From sequence record NC_028925.1: a stretch of DNA of 64,000 bases; one strand, written 5' to 3'. The notes beneath the pieces are model-generated. The model made no database searches. It was not told where the DNA came from and was given only the letters and a program-made list of their open reading frames with translations. The position numbers were made by a program, and so were the translations under genes. This DNA comes from Escherichia phage vB_EcoM_VR25. Shown piece by piece: positions 2,785-43,592 of this stretch (positions are counted from its first letter, which is position 1; each line of letters begins with the position of its first letter).

Positions 2785-3090
2785 TTAGATTTTATTTTCC
2801 TGCACACCATAGTAAAGTTCATCAGACACGATATTCAGGATGCGGCGAACATATTCATCATGGTAACGACATTCAAAATCAAATTCAACTGTAGTTTCTG
2901 CTTCACGAGTAAACTTAACAACCACATTCAGGTGGTTAACAACTTTAGTAAAGCTGTCAGTAAAGAATTCTTTTGCTACTGCTTGTTGTACTTGTACTTT
3001 GAACTTAGTGTTGCGAATCATGTTTTCAGCTGATGCGAAATTACCAGTTTTATCAAAGTCAACAAGCGCCAGGTTGATGATGAATTTCAT
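2785..3090 (-). CDS. hypothetical protein
   Basis: ORF track 101 aa; conserved leader ...ATACTGAGTTACCAAATAAAACTGGAGAATAAA-ATG directly upstream. Confidence 0.55.
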   Translation of the reverse strand: MKFIINLALVDFDKTGNFASAENMIRNTKFKVQVQQAVAKEFFTDSFTKVVNHLNVVVKFTREAETTVEFDFECRYHDEYVRRILNIVSDELYYGVQENKI

Positions 3091-3107
3091 TTTATTCTCC
3101 AGTTTTA

Positions 3108-3158
3108 TTTGGTAACTCAGTATGGAATCATTATGCCTTAAAGCAGGGGGCTTGTATA
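3108..3158 (-). promoter_or_regulatory. early promoter-like -10 (CATAAT) plus conserved leader cassette
   Basis: 24-mer TAACTCAGTATGGAATCATTATGC (plus-strand spelling) repeated at 3113, 3641, 4529; sits immediately upstream of the gene start at 3090. Confidence 0.45.
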
Positions 3159-3168
3159 CCCCCTTTTT
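3146..3168. terminator. GC hairpin GGGGG-cttgtata-CCCCC followed by TTTTT (plus side)
   Basis: inverted repeat read directly; lies between gene end 3172 and the promoter cassette. Confidence 0.35.
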
Positions 3169-3171
3169 GAA

Positions 3172-3615
3172 TTAAATTTCAAATTCTTTGCGGAAGTTGG
3201 AAGCATAAGATTGAACAGATGCTTTGTTGAATCCAAACTCACGCACAATCATATCAATAACAGCTCTGCGAGCAGCACCATTAGACATATTAACAGTTTT
3301 GAACATATCATAGCATAAATCTTTGTTGCTCATACCGGAGCGTTTAGGTGCCTTACGCTCAGCTTTTGGTTCAGCTTTAGGAGTAGGTTTAACTTCTGGT
3401 TTAACCTGCCCATCATTCAGACCTTTAAAAATTTTACCTGCCAGAGTTGCCAGTTTAGCAGCTTCACCACGAGTGATACCAAATACTGCCGGGTTAAATG
3501 AAATACCTTCAGCTGTCAGACGTTTGAAGAACATACGCGCTGCGGATTGCGCTTCAGCTTCAGAAGAGTTGTTTAATGCCAGTTTAACGTACTTAACCAG
3601 TTTTGAAGTTTTCAT
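3172..3615 (-). CDS. hypothetical protein; lysine/proline-rich linker; C-terminal domain shared with 4068..4493
   Basis: ORF track 147 aa; C-terminus ...AARRAVIDMIVREFGFNKASVQSYASNFRK. Confidence 0.55.
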   Translation of the reverse strand: MKTSKLVKYVKLALNNSSEAEAQSAARMFFKRLTAEGISFNPAVFGITRGEAAKLATLAGKIFKGLNDGQVKPEVKPTPKAEPKAERKAPKRSGMSNKDLCYDMFKTVNMSNGAARRAVIDMIVREFGFNKASVQSYASNFRKEFEI

Positions 3616-4957: not shown

Positions 4958-5033
4958 TGGTCGAGACAGTAGGGATCGAACCTACGACCTAGGACTTAGA
5001 AGGTCCTTGCTCTTCCTTCTGAGCTATGCCTCG
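4958..5033 (-). tRNA. tRNA-Arg (anticodon UCU)
   Basis: full cloverleaf folded by hand: acceptor CGAGGCA/TGTCTCG, D arm GCTC-AGAAGGAA-GAGC, anticodon arm AGGAC-CTTCTAA-GTCCT, T arm GTAGG-TTCGATC-CCTAC, encoded CCA. Confidence 0.7.
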
Positions 5034-5167: not shown

Positions 5168-5241
5168 TGGTGGCCCTGGGTGGAATCGAACCACCATCCA
5201 GCGATTATGAGTCGCTCGCTTGACCGTCCAGCTACAGGGCC
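5168..5241 (-). tRNA. tRNA with anticodon CAU (Met, or Ile if C34 is modified)
   Basis: cloverleaf folded by hand: acceptor GGCCCTG/CAGGGCC, anticodon arm AGCGA-CTCATAA-TCGCT, T arm GGTGG-TTCGATT-CCACC, encoded CCA. Confidence 0.7.
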
Positions 5242-6186: not shown

Positions 6187-6372
6187 TTACTCACCTTTAG
6201 ACATTTTATCCATAACGAAAGAGATTGAACCAATTAAGAATGCAACTACTAAAGAGATTATATTCTCAGAAGTTGAAAGCATATTCAACATAAAGCCAGC
6301 AAACATGCTAAAACCAAAAGCGGTAACAGCAACAAGGGCAGTAACATTTCTAATTAATTCACAACGTTTCAT
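6187..6372 (-). CDS. small hydrophobic (membrane) protein
   Basis: ORF track 61 aa; GAGGAG RBS; hydrophobic core VTALVAVTAFGFSMFAGFML. Confidence 0.4.
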   Translation of the reverse strand: MKRCELIRNVTALVAVTAFGFSMFAGFMLNMLSTSENIISLVVAFLIGSISFVMDKMSKGE

Positions 6373-6384
6373 TTTATTCTCCTC

Positions 6385-6430
6385 ATTAGTTGATGGGATA
6401 ATTATACACTATCCCATATCTAAAAGTACA
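6385..6430 (-). promoter_or_regulatory. early promoter with -10 TATAAT inside GGGATA/TATCCC inverted repeat
   Basis: minus-strand reading; exact 23-mer shared with 4020-4042. Confidence 0.45.
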
Positions 6431-6431
6431 C

Positions 6432-6665
6432 TTATTTTTTACGGAAAATTGATTTATACTTGTTAGCCCATTTCTCGATAACTTCTGCCGGACCCTGGAT
6501 AACAAAATAGTCCCCAAACTCTTCACCGCCGAGCTGACCGTAATTATCTAAGGCGTCGCGGAGAGTTCCATAAGGCATTTCGCCCATTTTATCTTTCTTG
6601 CCGGTGTAAATGAATTGCACTTTAACATCAGCAGTTTCATTAATAAATTCTTGATAAGTTTTCAT
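6432..6665 (-). CDS. internal-protein-like small protein with N-terminal capsid-targeting sequence (MKTYQEFINE)
   Basis: ORF track 77 aa; N-terminus nearly matches the T4 IPI/IPII/IPIII targeting peptide MKTYQEFIAE as I recall it; sits at the position of the T4 ipI locus (between tRNAs and 57B). Confidence 0.6.
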   Translation of the reverse strand: MKTYQEFINETADVKVQFIYTGKKDKMGEMPYGTLRDALDNYGQLGGEEFGDYFVIQGPAEVIEKWANKYKSIFRKK

Positions 6666-6674
6666 GTTGTCTCC

Positions 6675-6719
6675 AGTAGTTGATGGGATAATTATACTGC
6701 ATTTATCCCATCGTGTACA
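6675..6719 (-). promoter_or_regulatory. early promoter (-35 TGTACA, 17 bp, -10 TATAAT) with -10 flanked by GGGATA/TATCCC
   Basis: minus-strand reading of 6683-6719. Confidence 0.45.
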
Positions 6720-7019
6720 TTACATTTTTGAACCGCGAATTACACCATAAGCGGCGAAGTCGTCAGTGATATTTTTAGGGGTGTTCTTACCAGTTTCAAT
6801 ATATGCAATGCTGGATTTCTGACTAAATGAGGTAATTTTATTATAGTTAGAGTCAAGGAAGGTATAACCATTTTTACGCAGCTGGTCAAAGTCTTCAGCG
6901 TCGCCTTTACCTTTGAAGTCAACCCATTTGTATGTGTTTTTCTTCTGAAGGCCCAGAGGCCAAGTTTTTGCTTCTGCCAGGTAATTATTTTCTACCAAAA
7001 ATTCGTGGAACGTTTGCAT
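6720..7019 (-). CDS. internal-protein-like small protein with targeting-like N-terminus (MQTFHEFLVE)
   Basis: ORF track 99 aa. Confidence 0.55.
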   Translation of the reverse strand: MQTFHEFLVENNYLAEAKTWPLGLQKKNTYKWVDFKGKGDAEDFDQLRKNGYTFLDSNYNKITSFSQKSSIAYIETGKNTPKNITDDFAAYGVIRGSKM

Positions 7020-7027
7020 TTGAAATC

Positions 7028-7300
7028 CTATTTTAGATAAATTGCGTATTTTTTATAACCAGCTGTCTCATGGCGGAGACCCTTGTCATTGGCAAAACGC
7101 TCAATGTTGTTGATTTGGTTCTGGTCAAGTTCAGAGATGTCAAACGCGAAAAAGTTGCGTTTGTTACCAATTGTTATATGGTCAGTCAAGTCAATGCTGT
7201 ACAGGTGATTGATATTGTCAATCATAGCTTTGACTGCTTTACTAATTTTTACTTCTTCATTCAGTTGGGACTCGTTGAAAAGTTCATTAAAAGTTTTCAT
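7028..7300 (-). CDS. internal-protein-like small protein with targeting-like N-terminus (MKTFNELFNE)
   Basis: ORF track 90 aa; late-promoter octamer TATAAATA 13 nt upstream of the ATG. Confidence 0.55.
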   Translation of the reverse strand: MKTFNELFNESQLNEEVKISKAVKAMIDNINHLYSIDLTDHITIGNKRNFFAFDISELDQNQINNIERFANDKGLRHETAGYKKYAIYLK

Positions 7301-7308
7301 AAGAAACC

Positions 7309-7641
7309 TTATTTATACAGTTTAGCTAGTTCTTTACGTCCGCGAGCAGACATAATGAATTGTTCATCACCAATTTTGAAATAAGCCATACCGCCGTCAA
7401 CAGCGATGCCAATTTCTTTAGTACCTTCTTTGCCTTTCCACTTGCCACCAGATTTCAGGACAGCTTCAACTGCAGCTTTGGAATATTTGGACGTTTGAAA
7501 ACGTTCATTACCAATCTGAAAGAAAACACCATCTGCATTTTTGGATAAACCAAATTTCAGAGAGCCTTCACTATCATCAATTGATTTGGTTTCATTGATG
7601 GCGGATTCGGCTAAAAACTCGTTATAAGTCTTGATGTTCAT
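7309..7641 (-). CDS. internal-protein-like small protein with targeting-like N-terminus (MNIKTYNEFLAE)
   Basis: ORF track 7309..7674 trimmed to ATG at 7639-7641 with GGAG RBS. Confidence 0.5.
   Translation of the reverse strand: MNIKTYNEFLAESAINETKSIDDSEGSLKFGLSKNADGVFFQIGNERFQTSKYSKAAVEAVLKSGGKWKGKEGTKEIGIAVDGGMAYFKIGDEQFIMSARGRKELAKLYK
7310..7317 (-). promoter_or_regulatory. T4-type late promoter core TATAAATA
   Basis: exact octamer on the minus strand upstream of the gene starting at 7300. Confidence 0.4.
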
Positions 7642-7659
7642 TTTAACTCCGTTTGTTCG

Positions 7660-7701
7660 TGGGTGTAGGAACATAATACTGTGCCTACACTCATTTGTAC
7701 A

Positions 7702-7702
<1 letters not shown>
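7660..7702 (-). promoter_or_regulatory. early promoter (-35 TGTACA, -10 TATTAT) with -10 inside TGTAGG/CCTACA inverted repeat
   Basis: minus-strand reading of 7664-7702. Confidence 0.4.
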
Positions 7703-8386
<684 letters not shown>

Positions 8387-38196: not shown

Positions 38197-39015
38197 ATGC
38201 TTAAAGAACAACTCATTTCTGAAGCTCAAAACATCGATGCTTCCGTTGCTCTCGATAGTATTTTCGAATCAGTTAATTTGTCCCCGGAAGCGAAAGCTAC
38301 CTTCGGCACTGTATTCGAAGCTACCGTCAAGCAACACGCCATCAAACTGGCAGAATCTCACATTCACGCCATCGCTGAAAAAGCTGAAGAAGAAGTCGAA
38401 AAGAATAAAGAAGAATCCGACGAAAAAGCAGAGAAAAAACTGAAAGAATCTGCAGCTAAATTCCTGGACCACGTTGCTAAAGAATGGCTTGCTGAAAACA
38501 AACTGGCTGTCGACCGTGGCATTAAAGCTGACCTGTTCGAATCCATGTTTACCGGCATGAAAGAACTGTTCGTTGAGCACAACGTTGTTGTTCCAGAAGA
38601 ATCTGTTGATGTTGTTGCAGAAATGCAGGAAGAACTGGAAGAGCAAAAAGCTGAAACCGCTAGTCTGTTCGAAGAAGTTTCTAAGCGTGATGCTTATATC
38701 AATTATGTCCAGCGCGAAGTTGCGTTGACTGAAGCGACCAAAGACCTGACCGAATCTCAAAAAGAAAAAGTTGGTTCTCTGGTAGAAGGTATGGATTATT
38801 CCGATGCGTTCGGTACCAAAATTGGCGCTATCGTTGAAATGGTTAAAGGTCAGGTAGACACCGCCGAAAAACCTATCACCGAAGCAGCTATAAATAATTC
38901 TGTAGACGATGCTGCGGCACTGAATTACATCTCAGAAGCAGTTGAAGAAAAAGGCGCCAAGCCTACCCTGTCCTTCGCGGACTTGTCTGCTCTCGCAGCA
39001 TCACGAATTTCTTAA
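38197..39015 (+). CDS. 22: gp22 prohead scaffold core protein
   Basis: ORF track 272 aa; E/K-rich helical sequence. Confidence 0.85.
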   Translation: MLKEQLISEAQNIDASVALDSIFESVNLSPEAKATFGTVFEATVKQHAIKLAESHIHAIAEKAEEEVEKNKEESDEKAEKKLKESAAKFLDHVAKEWLAENKLAVDRGIKADLFESMFTGMKELFVEHNVVVPEESVDVVAEMQEELEEQKAETASLFEEVSKRDAYINYVQREVALTEATKDLTESQKEKVGSLVEGMDYSDAFGTKIGAIVEMVKGQVDTAEKPITEAAINNSVDDAAALNYISEAVEEKGAKPTLSFADLSALAASRIS

Positions 39016-41027: not shown

Positions 41028-42308
41028 ATGGCAAAGATTAACGAACTGCTGCGCGAGTCAACTACCACTACCAGCAACTCCTTGGGCCGCCCGAATCTTG
41101 TTGCTTTGACCCGTGCTACAACCAAATTGATTTACCGCGATATTATCGCTGAACAACGTACTAACCAGCCAGTTGCGGCTCTGTACGGTGTTAAATATCT
41201 TACTCCTGATAATGAATTCAGTTTCCAGACTGGTGCTACTTATGGTGGTGAAGTCGGTTCTAAAGACCGTACAACTATTCCAGAATTAGCTACAGCTACT
41301 CAGCCTGTTGCTAAAGGCGAATATGTAAAATATCAAAATATCGTTTACAAAGCTCTGGTGGATAATCCATTTGCAACAACCACAGAAACAGTATTATCTG
41401 ATGTTCTACAGGAAGGTCTTATTGCATCGACTATTCGTTTAGTTCCTGATGCAGCGCATACCGAGAAATTTGAAGCCGGTGATGTTGAAATTAGTAACGC
41501 CGTGTTCCAGGTTAATAAATGGAATGCTCCTGTTAAATCCCGTAAATTGAAAACTGCACTGACTGTTGAACTTGCTCAGGATATGGAAGCAAACGGTTTT
41601 AATGCTCCTGCTTTCCTGGAAGACCTGCTTGCAACTACCATGGCAGACGAAATTAACAAAGATGTTCTGCAGTCTCTGATTACCGTTTCCAAGCGTTATA
41701 AAGTCACTGGCGTTTCTGATAAAGGTTTCATCGATTTGACATATGATTCAGCTCCAGAAGGCGCACGTAAACTATACGAACTGGTTTGCGAAATGAACTC
41801 TGAAATTCAGAAAACTACATCTTACTCTGGTACATTCGTTGTTGCCTCAAGTCGTGTGGCCGCGATGCTCGCCGGTTCCGGTTGGTTGAAACATAAACCT
41901 GAAGATGAACAATGGCTCCCGGAAACCGCGTACGGCTATTTGATTAATGGTCTTCCTGTATTCTGTGATGTTAACAGTCCATTGGATTATGTAACCGTTG
42001 GCGTTAAAGAAAATTACGGTGGAAACGAAGTCGTAGGCTCAATCTTCTATGCTCCTTATACCGAAGGCCTGGACTTAGATGATGAAGAACATGTAGGTGC
42101 GTTTAAGGTCATTGTGGACCCAGACAGCTTGCAGCCATCTATCTCCTTGATGGTTCGATATGCACTTTCAGCTAACCCTTACACCGTTGCTAAAGACGAC
42201 AAAGAAGCTCGTATTATCGATGCAACTAATATGGATTTAATGGCCGGCCAGAGCAACATGTCTTATCTGCTCGGTGTTAAACTTCCACCAATCATTTATG
42301 AGGCGTAA
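41028..42308 (+). CDS. 24: gp24 head vertex protein
   Basis: ORF track 426 aa; N-terminus MAKINELLRESTTT...GRPNLVALTRATTKLIY matches T4 gp24. Confidence 0.9.
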   Translation: MAKINELLRESTTTTSNSLGRPNLVALTRATTKLIYRDIIAEQRTNQPVAALYGVKYLTPDNEFSFQTGATYGGEVGSKDRTTIPELATATQPVAKGEYVKYQNIVYKALVDNPFATTTETVLSDVLQEGLIASTIRLVPDAAHTEKFEAGDVEISNAVFQVNKWNAPVKSRKLKTALTVELAQDMEANGFNAPAFLEDLLATTMADEINKDVLQSLITVSKRYKVTGVSDKGFIDLTYDSAPEGARKLYELVCEMNSEIQKTTSYSGTFVVASSRVAAMLAGSGWLKHKPEDEQWLPETAYGYLINGLPVFCDVNSPLDYVTVGVKENYGGNEVVGSIFYAPYTEGLDLDDEEHVGAFKVIVDPDSLQPSISLMVRYALSANPYTVAKDDKEARIIDATNMDLMAGQSNMSYLLGVKLPPIIYEA

Positions 42309-43592
42309 ATGCAAAAGATTAACGCACTAATTCACGAATCAACATTAACGGCGGCCAACCAGGTCGCCCGTCCTAATTTGCTTTCTTATACTCGGGCTAC
42401 GAATAAACGAATTTTTAAAGCTCTTGTGGCCGAACAGAAAACTACTCAGCCAGTCGCAGCGCTGTATGGCGTTCGTGTTCTGAACCCAGATGATAAAATG
42501 ACTTATCTTGGTGGAGCAACATTTGCAGGCCAGATTGGTATGTTCGAGCGTAAGAATATTCCAGAATTTACGAACAAAGACGAAGCTTATGCAGTCGGCA
42601 ACATGTTCCAGTTTGAAAGCATTGTATTCAAAGCTTTGGAAGCTTCTCCTTTTGCCGGGACCCTCGAAACTGATTTGGGTGAAGTTATTTCTGAAGCCAT
42701 TGCGGCTGGCCATATAAGAATGATGTCAGATGCGGCTTTCACTGATAAATTTGAACAAGGACATCCTGAAATTGCTGAAGCCGGTTTCCGTATTGATAAA
42801 TGGCAGACTGAAGTTAAATCCAGAAAACTGAAAACCTCTTTAACCGTTGAGCTTGCGCAAGACCTGGAAGCAAATGGTTTCGACGCAACAGATTTTATTG
42901 ATAATATCCTTGGTATTCAAATGGCAGAGGAAATTAATAAGGACGTACTGCAATCTTTAATTACCGTGAGTTCGCGTTTTAAAGTCCAGGGTGTTTCCGA
43001 AAAAGGTGTACTTAATCTTACTGATGCCGCTTATGATAATGCTCAGGACCGTGCTCGAACTCTGTATTATTATATGTGCGAAATGAATTCCGCAGTTCAA
43101 CGTCAGACTTCGTTCGCTGGTACATATGCAGTCGCTTCTTCCCGTTGTGCAGCTATTTTAGCAGCTTCTGGCTGGGTTGAGAAAAAGGAAGACCAAGATG
43201 AATTGGCCTATGGTGTTCTGAAGAACGGTTTGCCACTTTATGCAGATATGAATAGCCCGTGCGATTATGTTATTGTTGGTGTAAATGCTGATATGGGTGA
43301 AGGTCAGACAGTCGCATCTTTGTATTATGCGCCTTATACGGAAGGTCTTAGTGAAGTTGATGATGAGGGTGACACCTCGGTTGGGGAATTCAAGGTTATC
43401 GTTGACCCCGAAAGTTTACAGCCTACAGTTGCACTGTTAGCTCGTTATGCACTGACTGCAAACCCTTACACCGTTGCTAAAGACGATAAAGAAGCTCGCA
43501 TTATTGATGGAGCTGATATGGATAAGATGGCTAACCAAAGCCAATTGAGTTCTTATCTTGGTGTTAAACTTCCACCACTGGAAAAAGAATAA
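42309..43592 (+). CDS. gp24 paralog (second head vertex protein copy, tandem duplicate)
   Basis: ORF track 427 aa; collinear similarity to the preceding gene (MQKINALIHEST..., ...PYTVAKDDKEARIID...GVKLPP). Confidence 0.85.
   Translation: MQKINALIHESTLTAANQVARPNLLSYTRATNKRIFKALVAEQKTTQPVAALYGVRVLNPDDKMTYLGGATFAGQIGMFERKNIPEFTNKDEAYAVGNMFQFESIVFKALEASPFAGTLETDLGEVISEAIAAGHIRMMSDAAFTDKFEQGHPEIAEAGFRIDKWQTEVKSRKLKTSLTVELAQDLEANGFDATDFIDNILGIQMAEEINKDVLQSLITVSSRFKVQGVSEKGVLNLTDAAYDNAQDRARTLYYYMCEMNSAVQRQTSFAGTYAVASSRCAAILAASGWVEKKEDQDELAYGVLKNGLPLYADMNSPCDYVIVGVNADMGEGQTVASLYYAPYTEGLSEVDDEGDTSVGEFKVIVDPESLQPTVALLARYALTANPYTVAKDDKEARIIDGADMDKMANQSQLSSYLGVKLPPLEKE

Follow-up and report, generated by a model that had tools for sequence, protein, structure and literature searches.

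Four Genes with Capsid-Targeting Leaders in the Internal Protein Locus of Escherichia Phage vB_EcoM_VR25

The internal proteins (IPs) of bacteriophage T4 reach the host together with the phage DNA, before phage genes are expressed, and are thus good candidates for first-line counter-defence. A 10-residue capsid-targeting sequence (CTS) at the N-terminus suffices to package foreign proteins in T4 and is removed by the protease gp21. As summarized in reviews, gp21 cleaves after L/I-x-E, the propeptides of the IPs are 10-19 residues long, and the genetics of the IPIII leader assign residues 4 and 7 to targeting and residues 8 and 10 to processing. Reviews also describe the IPs as diverse defence proteins, of which the CTS is the sole common part. 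IPI* acts as an inhibitor of GmrSD from E. coli CT596, and each of the T4 proteins Ip1, Ip2 and Ip3 inhibits a GmrSD type IV restriction enzyme of its own, with no cross-protection (Silas et al. 2025); the same authors propose GmrSD variants as the targets of all genes in both Ip loci. Arrays of several IP genes that share a conserved leader and are flanked by promoter/terminator repeats are credited to Repoila et al. (1994) in later papers. The present analysis concerns an array of four such genes in a 64-kb stretch of DNA (the window) of Escherichia phage vB_EcoM_VR25, record NC_028925.1.

The four leaders and the processing machinery

The array consists of four adjacent open reading frames (ORFs) on the minus strand, which encode proteins of 77, 99, 90 and 110 amino acids. 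The following observations suggest that these ORFs very probably represent the internal head protein class of T4 in the hyperplastic locus between genes 57B and tRNA.4 of the genus Gaprivervirus, and that their products would, by analogy with T4, be packaged and injected as effectors. A preliminary description of this DNA had proposed such effectors, and the coordinates it gave for four consecutive minus-strand genes with CTS-like N-termini are exact. The genes are listed below, with a slash at the cleavage position expected in each leader:

6432-6665, minus strand: ip6, 77 amino acids; leader MKTYQEFINE/T, with Y4 F7 I8 E10, the same determinants as in IPIII.
6720-7019, minus strand: homologue of gp154, 99 amino acids (VR20 gp280); leader MQTFHEFLVE/N, with F4 F7 L8 E10, which are conservative variants; a further canonical site, L-A-E/A, at residues 14-16.
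7028-7300, minus strand: ip9, 90 amino acids; leader MKTFNELFNE/S, with F4 L7 F8 E10; the first site departs from L/I-x-E, and L-N-E/E at residues 13-15 fits it.
7309-7641, minus strand: homologue of gp156, 110 amino acids (VR20 gp278); leader MNIKTYNEFLAE/S, with Y6 F9 L10 E12, the IPIII pattern at an offset of +2; a further site, I-N-E/T, at residues 15-17.

The leaders carry the determinants of T4-type IPs, namely an aromatic residue at each of positions 4 and 7, L or I at 8 and Glu at 10, with Ip9 deviating at positions 7 and 8. Strict and relaxed regular expressions, applied to the Met-initiated ORFs in all six frames of the window, find a CTS-like N-terminus at these four ORFs only; no additional CTS ORF and no paralogue of gp154 was found within the 64 kb. 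The clustering of the motif at four neighbouring ORFs is thus far beyond chance. The T4 peptide with which the leaders had been compared at the outset, MKTYQEFIAE, is real and forms the beginning of both IPII and IPIII, but it is not that of IPI, to which the preliminary comparison was tied: IPI begins with MKTFKEFTSTTTPVSTITE/A and has a leader of 19 residues.

The start of gp156 is the ATG at 7641, which has a GGAG 8 nt upstream. An alternative ATG at 7674 lies within a promoter hairpin, has no ribosome-binding site and would give a product of 121 amino acids. It is the ATG in the promoter hairpin that is used as the start of gp156 in the VR7 record (HM563683), where the protein is accordingly 121 amino acids long.

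The mature parts of the four proteins comprise 67-98 residues, or about 7.7-10.7 kDa. Those of gp154 and gp156 are basic, with an isoelectric point (pI) of 9.3, and those of Ip6 (pI 7.8) and Ip9 (pI 6.8) are near neutral. The mature parts had been described as unrelated to each other and to T4 IPI, and this description stands: no pairwise BLAST similarity was detected among them or with T4 IPI, IPII and IPIII (all E > 0.09, in a database of eight sequences). A distant kinship between Ip6 and gp156, indicated by tblastn (E 5e-4) and by hhalign (94%), was rejected, because the match drops to 9.7% probability after the CTS columns are trimmed.

The proteins with which the leaders would have to interact are encoded in the same genome:

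37526-38161, plus strand: gp21 prohead protease (Pfam Peptidase_S77, E 2.4e-102; 87.7% identical to T4 gp21).
38197-39012, plus strand: gp22 scaffolding core protein (Pfam T4_CASP, E 2e-90; 73% identical to T4 gp22).

Gp67 and gp68 are also encoded alongside gp22 in the window, and gp23 has the T4 cleavage site, LTE/AEIGGD, unchanged. Downstream of gene 23, tblastn with gp23 gives two separate weak matches (28% identity) at 41505-42182 and 42777-43469, both on the plus strand. These are probably two genes of gp24-like vertex proteins, rather than one.

By combining the leaders with what is known of T4, the expected pathway of the four proteins can be described in some detail. Each N-terminal CTS would bind its protein to the gp22 core during prohead assembly. 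Gp21 would then cut after L/I-x-Glu, thus releasing the mature polypeptides, which would remain inside the head and be ejected, together with the DNA, into the next host. There, each of them would probably neutralise one specific host defence, which is the weakest step of the scheme. On the T4 analogy, the packaging and processing of the four proteins are highly likely and their injected anti-defence role is likely. The specific assignment to GmrSD is uncertain, because VR20 has no beta-gt, gene 42 or alpha-gt in the usual places and because two studies report that Gaprivervirus lacks all known enzymes of the hydroxymethylcytosine (hmC) pathway. For proteins of this class the published consensus is that they form an arsenal of injected anti-defence effectors, to which the four would be added by analogy.

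Cassettes, promoters and hairpins

Hyperplastic IP loci are situated between 57B and trna.4 or around denV/e, and the array of VR25 occupies the first of these positions, with 57B upstream and tRNA.4 downstream. In T4 the same pair of genes encloses ipI alone, so that a single T4 gene, as had been claimed at the outset, corresponds to four genes here. The locus is thus the ipI slot of T4, which Repoila et al. (1994) described as a hyperplastic IP locus. The flanking genes are as follows:

7702-8157, minus strand: 57B (Acb1), anti-CBASS phosphodiesterase, in the position of T4 57B (Pfam PF23474, E 1.2e-59; PHROG 755).
6187-6372, minus strand: tRNA.4 homologue, a predicted membrane protein of 61 amino acids (PHROG 1692, E 4.7e-33; annotated in VR7 and VR20 as "similar to T4 Trna.4").

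Acb1, a proven anti-CBASS counter-defence gene, directly abuts the candidate counter-defence cassettes. Genes for tRNA-Arg(tct), at 4958-5033, and tRNA-Met(cat), at 5168-5241, both on the minus strand, are found downstream of the locus; the counterpart region of T4 has eight tRNA genes.

Within the array, gp156, ip9 and gp154 are tightly packed into a single unit, with spacers of 8 nt. The ip6 gene is a separate cassette, positioned between two copies of a repeat of 54-59 nt, in which a sigma-70-like promoter is combined with a hairpin. The layout of this repeat is TGTAC...GATGGGATA...GTATAAT-TATCCCATCAACTA... followed by the Shine-Dalgarno sequence, and its 10-bp stem straddles the -10 box. 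Three elements of this kind are associated with the array:

7642-7701, minus strand: promoter and stem-loop before gp156; TGTACA-17-TATTAT; stem GTGTAGG paired with CCTACAC; promoter scan match at 7701-7673; fold of -14.3 kcal/mol, z -2.2.
6666-6719, minus strand: promoter and stem-loop repeat (D1); TGTACA-17-TATAAT; stem GATGGGATAA paired with TTATCCCATC; promoter scan match; fold of -13.6 kcal/mol, z -3.1.
6373-6431, minus strand: second copy of the D1 repeat, upstream of tRNA.4; fold of -15.2 kcal/mol, z -2.6.

The exact D1 motif occurs only twice in the window. The promoter/terminator repeat that Repoila and co-workers described for the IP locus is reportedly roughly 70 bp long. As no U-tract follows the stems, the intergenic hairpins of VR25 were not scored as intrinsic terminators. 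The spacer between 57B and ipI in T4, as well as the other ipI spacer, has the same architecture as the VR25 elements but other stem sequences. The pairing has therefore been kept while the sequence has changed.

The DNA of this region is 96-98% identical to that of Escherichia phages vB_EcoM_VR20, VR7, TH57 and other members of Gaprivervirus (Tevenvirinae), and the window belongs with VR7, VR20 and SP18 in this genus. The gene order is that of VR7 and VR20 minus one cassette, because these phages have a fifth gene (gp153/gp281, 92 amino acids, beginning MKTYQEFINES) between gp154 and ip6. The unit missing from the window comprises this CTS ORF and one promoter/hairpin repeat (window 6666-6719 as against 3067-3454 of the VR20 stretch). 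When the window is compared with VR20 by BLAST, two collinear segments are obtained, which have 95 nt of the window in common, over the repeat and the start of the CTS, and lie 239 nt apart on VR20. The spacer at 6666-6719 is a hybrid: its 5' part is the VR20 spacer between genes 280 and 281, and its 3' end is the VR20 spacer between 281 and ip6. The hybrid spacer and the overlapping segments indicate that recombination, acting in the repeat and the shared CTS start, has removed or added one repeat-to-repeat unit. As expected of the repeats of IP loci, the composite element flanks variable ORFs, and the difference between the relatives maps to the element itself.

The arrays of nine Gaprivervirus phages (the window and eight deposited genomes) contain 3-5 genes. 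All nine open with gp156-Ip9, and it is the distal slots that vary, with the combinations labelled F4-F5-F3, F3 alone, F5 alone, F3-F6, F4-F3 and F4-F5, to which ip5 is added in some. A wider set of 30 loci downstream of 57B, taken from IMG/VR contigs, T4, VR7 and the window, has 0-5 CTS ORFs per locus, and these belong to 16 sequence families in mosaic combinations. The four families of the window recur in 12, 9, 6 and 3 of these loci. The genes are thus exchangeable cassettes, which are added, removed and swapped by recombination at the repeats and the shared CTS start, and close relatives carry different gene sets as a result of this recombination.

VR20 has a second IP locus around denV/e (57.3-59.1 kb, just outside the region of the window), where ip7, a paralogue of gp154, ip10 and ip5 are found, all with MKTY... 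leaders. Together with the five genes at its 57B locus, VR20 has nine CTS proteins. The full CTS complement of this type of phage is therefore probably about eight or nine.

Protein families, targets and alternative roles

The preliminary description implied that the genes were new, which is not the case. Annotated genes of VR7 (2010) and VR20 match them at 97-100% identity, and two of these already have the names Ip6 and Ip9. The identities to VR20 are 97% for Ip6 (Ip6), 98% for gp154 (gp280), 100% for Ip9 (Ip9) and 100% for gp156 (gp278), and Ip9 is also 100% identical to VR7 Ip9. The VR7 record, which dates from 2010, lists the four genes as ip6 ("similar to T6 Ip6"), ORF154c, ip9 ("similar to RB32 Ip9") and ORF156c. 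RefSeq calls three of the four proteins internal head or virion proteins, including VR20 gp280 ("internal head protein"), and gp156 is annotated as 'hypothetical' in most records. In the record of EAWsc9 (PQ341120) the 99-residue protein is labelled 'homing endonuclease' and the 110-residue protein 'profilin'.

The matches to PHROG profiles follow the same lines: Ip6 to 8111 ('internal virion protein', E 1.8e-51), Ip9 to 7673 ('internal head protein', E 3.3e-56), gp154 to 2667 (an internal head/virion family, E 2.4e-21) and gp156 to 3966 (function unassigned, E 1.2e-33). Scans of the four proteins against Pfam and NCBIfam gave sub-threshold noise only, and the literature contains no reported function for Ip6, Ip9, gp154 or gp156. 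With tblastn, the families are found in 244 (Ip6), 181 (gp154), 171 (Ip9) and 54 (gp156) deposited phage genomes, nearly all of them T4-like, and they are conserved at 50-100% identity over these 54-244 records.

Structure prediction, which had been suggested at the outset as a check of the mature domains, was made with AlphaFold from small alignments that contained 10-12 sequences. The model of gp156 (pLDDT score 76, moderate confidence) contains two tandem beta-beta-beta-beta-alpha repeats in one domain, and a Whirly/PUR-like fold is predicted for this protein of 110 amino acids. The proteins that it resembles, Whirly, PUR and MRP1-MRP2, are single-stranded nucleic-acid binders, but their sequence identity to gp156 is only 8-13%, and SsgA and ErpC, which are not nucleic-acid binders, score about as well. 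In the AlphaFold2 model of Ip6 (pLDDT score 78.7) the leader is helical and precedes a small alpha/beta domain, which has no specific relative in the Protein Data Bank (PDB).

The family of Ip9 is tiny: tblastn and HMMER, the latter run exhaustively against 1.8 billion representatives, find eight representatives. It includes proteins of 66-74 amino acids that have no targeting tag and begin at the start of the Ip9 mature domain. Two stand-alone Ip9-domain ORFs of this kind, with 72-74 amino acids, about 50% identity and no CTS, are encoded by siphoviruses that are unrelated to T4:

3007-3225 of the stretch compared: gene 64 of JSSK01 (Kagunavirus), a tag-less Ip9 domain.
2992-3216 of the stretch compared: CDS0081 of SHIN8 (Seuratvirus), a tag-less Ip9 domain.

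Both sit among small ORFs near replication genes (primase/helicase). A chimeric relative of Ip9 (P0026) has the C-terminal 36 residues in common and nothing else. The existence of the domain without a leader in siphoviruses shows that it is an autonomous module, which is able to work without packaging and onto which the T4-like phages grafted a packaging tag.

Several observations weigh against the four proteins being packaged effectors of the T4 type. In the leaders, the L7 and F8 of Ip9 break the L/I-x-E rule at the first site, and gp156 has two additional N-terminal residues ahead of its CTS. The promoters that flank the cassettes resemble early sigma-70 promoters. The T4 late-promoter octamer, TATAAATA, has its sole exact copy in the locus at 7310-7317 (minus strand), where it overlaps the stop codon of gp156, 10 nt before the start of ip9; as evidence of a late promoter this copy was rejected, since the octamer occurs at about chance frequency in the AT-rich window (5 copies on the minus strand and 15 on the plus strand). 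Late expression of the array must therefore be assumed to result from read-through of upstream late genes. As to the mature parts, they have no detectable similarity to Ip1, Ip2 or Ip3 (BLAST, best E 0.48), and a PDB sequence search with each of them matched no solved structure and no IPI* chain. The model of Ip6, compared with the PDB by Foldseek, gave generic small alpha/beta (ferredoxin-like) matches with E >= 0.075, none of them specific. Finally, the genus is without gene 42 and glucosyltransferases, so that the target class known from experiments with IPs may not apply.

As the canonical positions of the modification genes lie outside the window of VR25, VR20 was examined as its close relative. 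Neither beta-gt nor gene 42 (dCMP hydroxymethylase) is present between uvsX and imm of VR20 (14000-46000), where one hypothetical gene of 167 amino acids is found instead, and the interval from gene 47 to gene 55 contains no alpha-gt. According to two comparative studies, Gaprivervirus is without any known enzyme of the hmC pathway and has kept dCTPase, denA, denB and alc. The retention of these four in the absence of the hmC enzymes points to a probable modification other than the known ones. As the relatives do not have the hmC/glucosyl pathway that is sensed by the known targets of IPs, which recognise glucosyl-hmC or ara-hmC, an anti-restriction function like that of IPI is not simply transferable to the present proteins.

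It is possible, but rather less likely than not, that all four proteins are inhibitors of different GmrSD-family type IV enzymes, as the hypothesis of Silas et al. (2025) would have it. Each of Ip1, Ip2 and Ip3 blocks one GmrSD variant without protecting against the others, the authors extend this to every gene of the Ip loci, and the extreme diversity of GmrSD parallels that of the IPs. However, glucosylated hmC, the substrate, is probably absent, since in the relatives of the phage the canonical positions of gene 42, beta-gt and alpha-gt do not hold these genes; none of the mature parts is homologous to any of the three T4 inhibitors; and the fold predicted for the protein of 110 amino acids is of a nucleic-acid-binding type, not an enzyme-mimicking one.

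A slightly more tentative proposal starts from the DNA. If the DNA of Gaprivervirus is not glycosyl-hmC, the array cannot consist of inhibitors specific for GmrSD acting on glucosylated hmC, and injected IPs would then be directed at other defences. Under these conditions the 110-residue protein could, as the predicted Whirly/PUR-like binder, shield or mask the entering DNA, and Ip9 could represent an anti-defence domain of general use, in common with siphoviruses, which express it without packaging.

It is improbable that the proteins are mainly structural or physico-chemical components of the head, such as DNA counter-ions, packaging aids or core accessories, with no target in the host and with a variability that reflects weak constraint. 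Reviews note that T4 mutants in IPIII have slower head assembly and smaller bursts and that lysines of the IPs contact DNA phosphates, and both the basic character of mature gp154 and gp156 and the predicted fold of gp156, typical of nucleic-acid binders, would suit such a role. Mature Ip6 and Ip9, on the other hand, are near neutral. The conservation of the families over so many records argues for specific folded functions, the siphoviruses keep the Ip9 domain without a packaging tag, and all three T4 IPs have proved to have specific targets.

Finally, the notion that the ORFs encode early cytoplasmic proteins that are never packaged, with an N-terminus kept as a boundary of recombining cassettes or as an efficient translation start, finds some encouragement in the sigma-70-like, early-type promoters and in the extension of the repeat common to neighbouring cassettes into the first codons, but it is very unlikely, as the four genes share only 63-73% identity over their initial 30 nt, with synonymous codon differences (AAA/AAG, ACT/ACG, GAA/GAG, TTG/TTA), and the residues essential for targeting and processing are nevertheless kept, so that selection acts at the level of the peptide, and as a leader of 10 residues is enough to package foreign proteins in T4 and the cognate protease gp21 and core protein gp22 are conserved.

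Comparison with known systems

Most of what the array illustrates is already known: the IP class, the CTS, the hyperplastic locus (since 1994), the promoter/hairpin repeats, the shuffling model, the anti-restriction rationale and the genes themselves, which had been deposited. The additions made here are minor and consist of the junction at which one cassette was gained or lost, the recognition that gp156 belongs to the CTS proteins and has a fold predicted to be Whirly/PUR-like, and the tag-less Ip9 domains of siphoviruses. The CTS is already a tool for the packaging of foreign proteins. With these four proteins, and genome-wide probably eight or nine, a set of small, well-delimited candidate effectors is on offer. 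A genus that is without the hmC/glucosyl pathway and carries one of the larger sets of IPs is also a useful test of the idea that all IPs inhibit GmrSD.

The repeats of the locus can be compared with the promoter-early stem-loop (PeSL) elements of T4-like phages (Arbiol 2010; Comeau 2014). The IP-locus promoter/terminator repeat is attributed to Repoila et al. (1994) and was later generalised as PeSLs. In common with these, the VR25 element joins a promoter of sigma-70-like type and a stem-loop to a Shine-Dalgarno sequence and start codon, and it is repeated on either side of a cassette. The two differ in the position of the hairpin, which in VR25 and at T4 ipI straddles the spacer and the -10 box, whereas the PeSL hairpin of phages PST and nt-1 is described as upstream of the promoter.

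In comparison with T4 itself, the VR25 array differs in having four genes where T4 has one, in the dissimilarity of the mature domains and in belonging to a genus without the hmC/glucosyl pathway. With IPI, IPII and IPIII it shares the leader, the L/I-x-E motif, the ipI slot, the small size of the products and the conserved gp21 and gp22.

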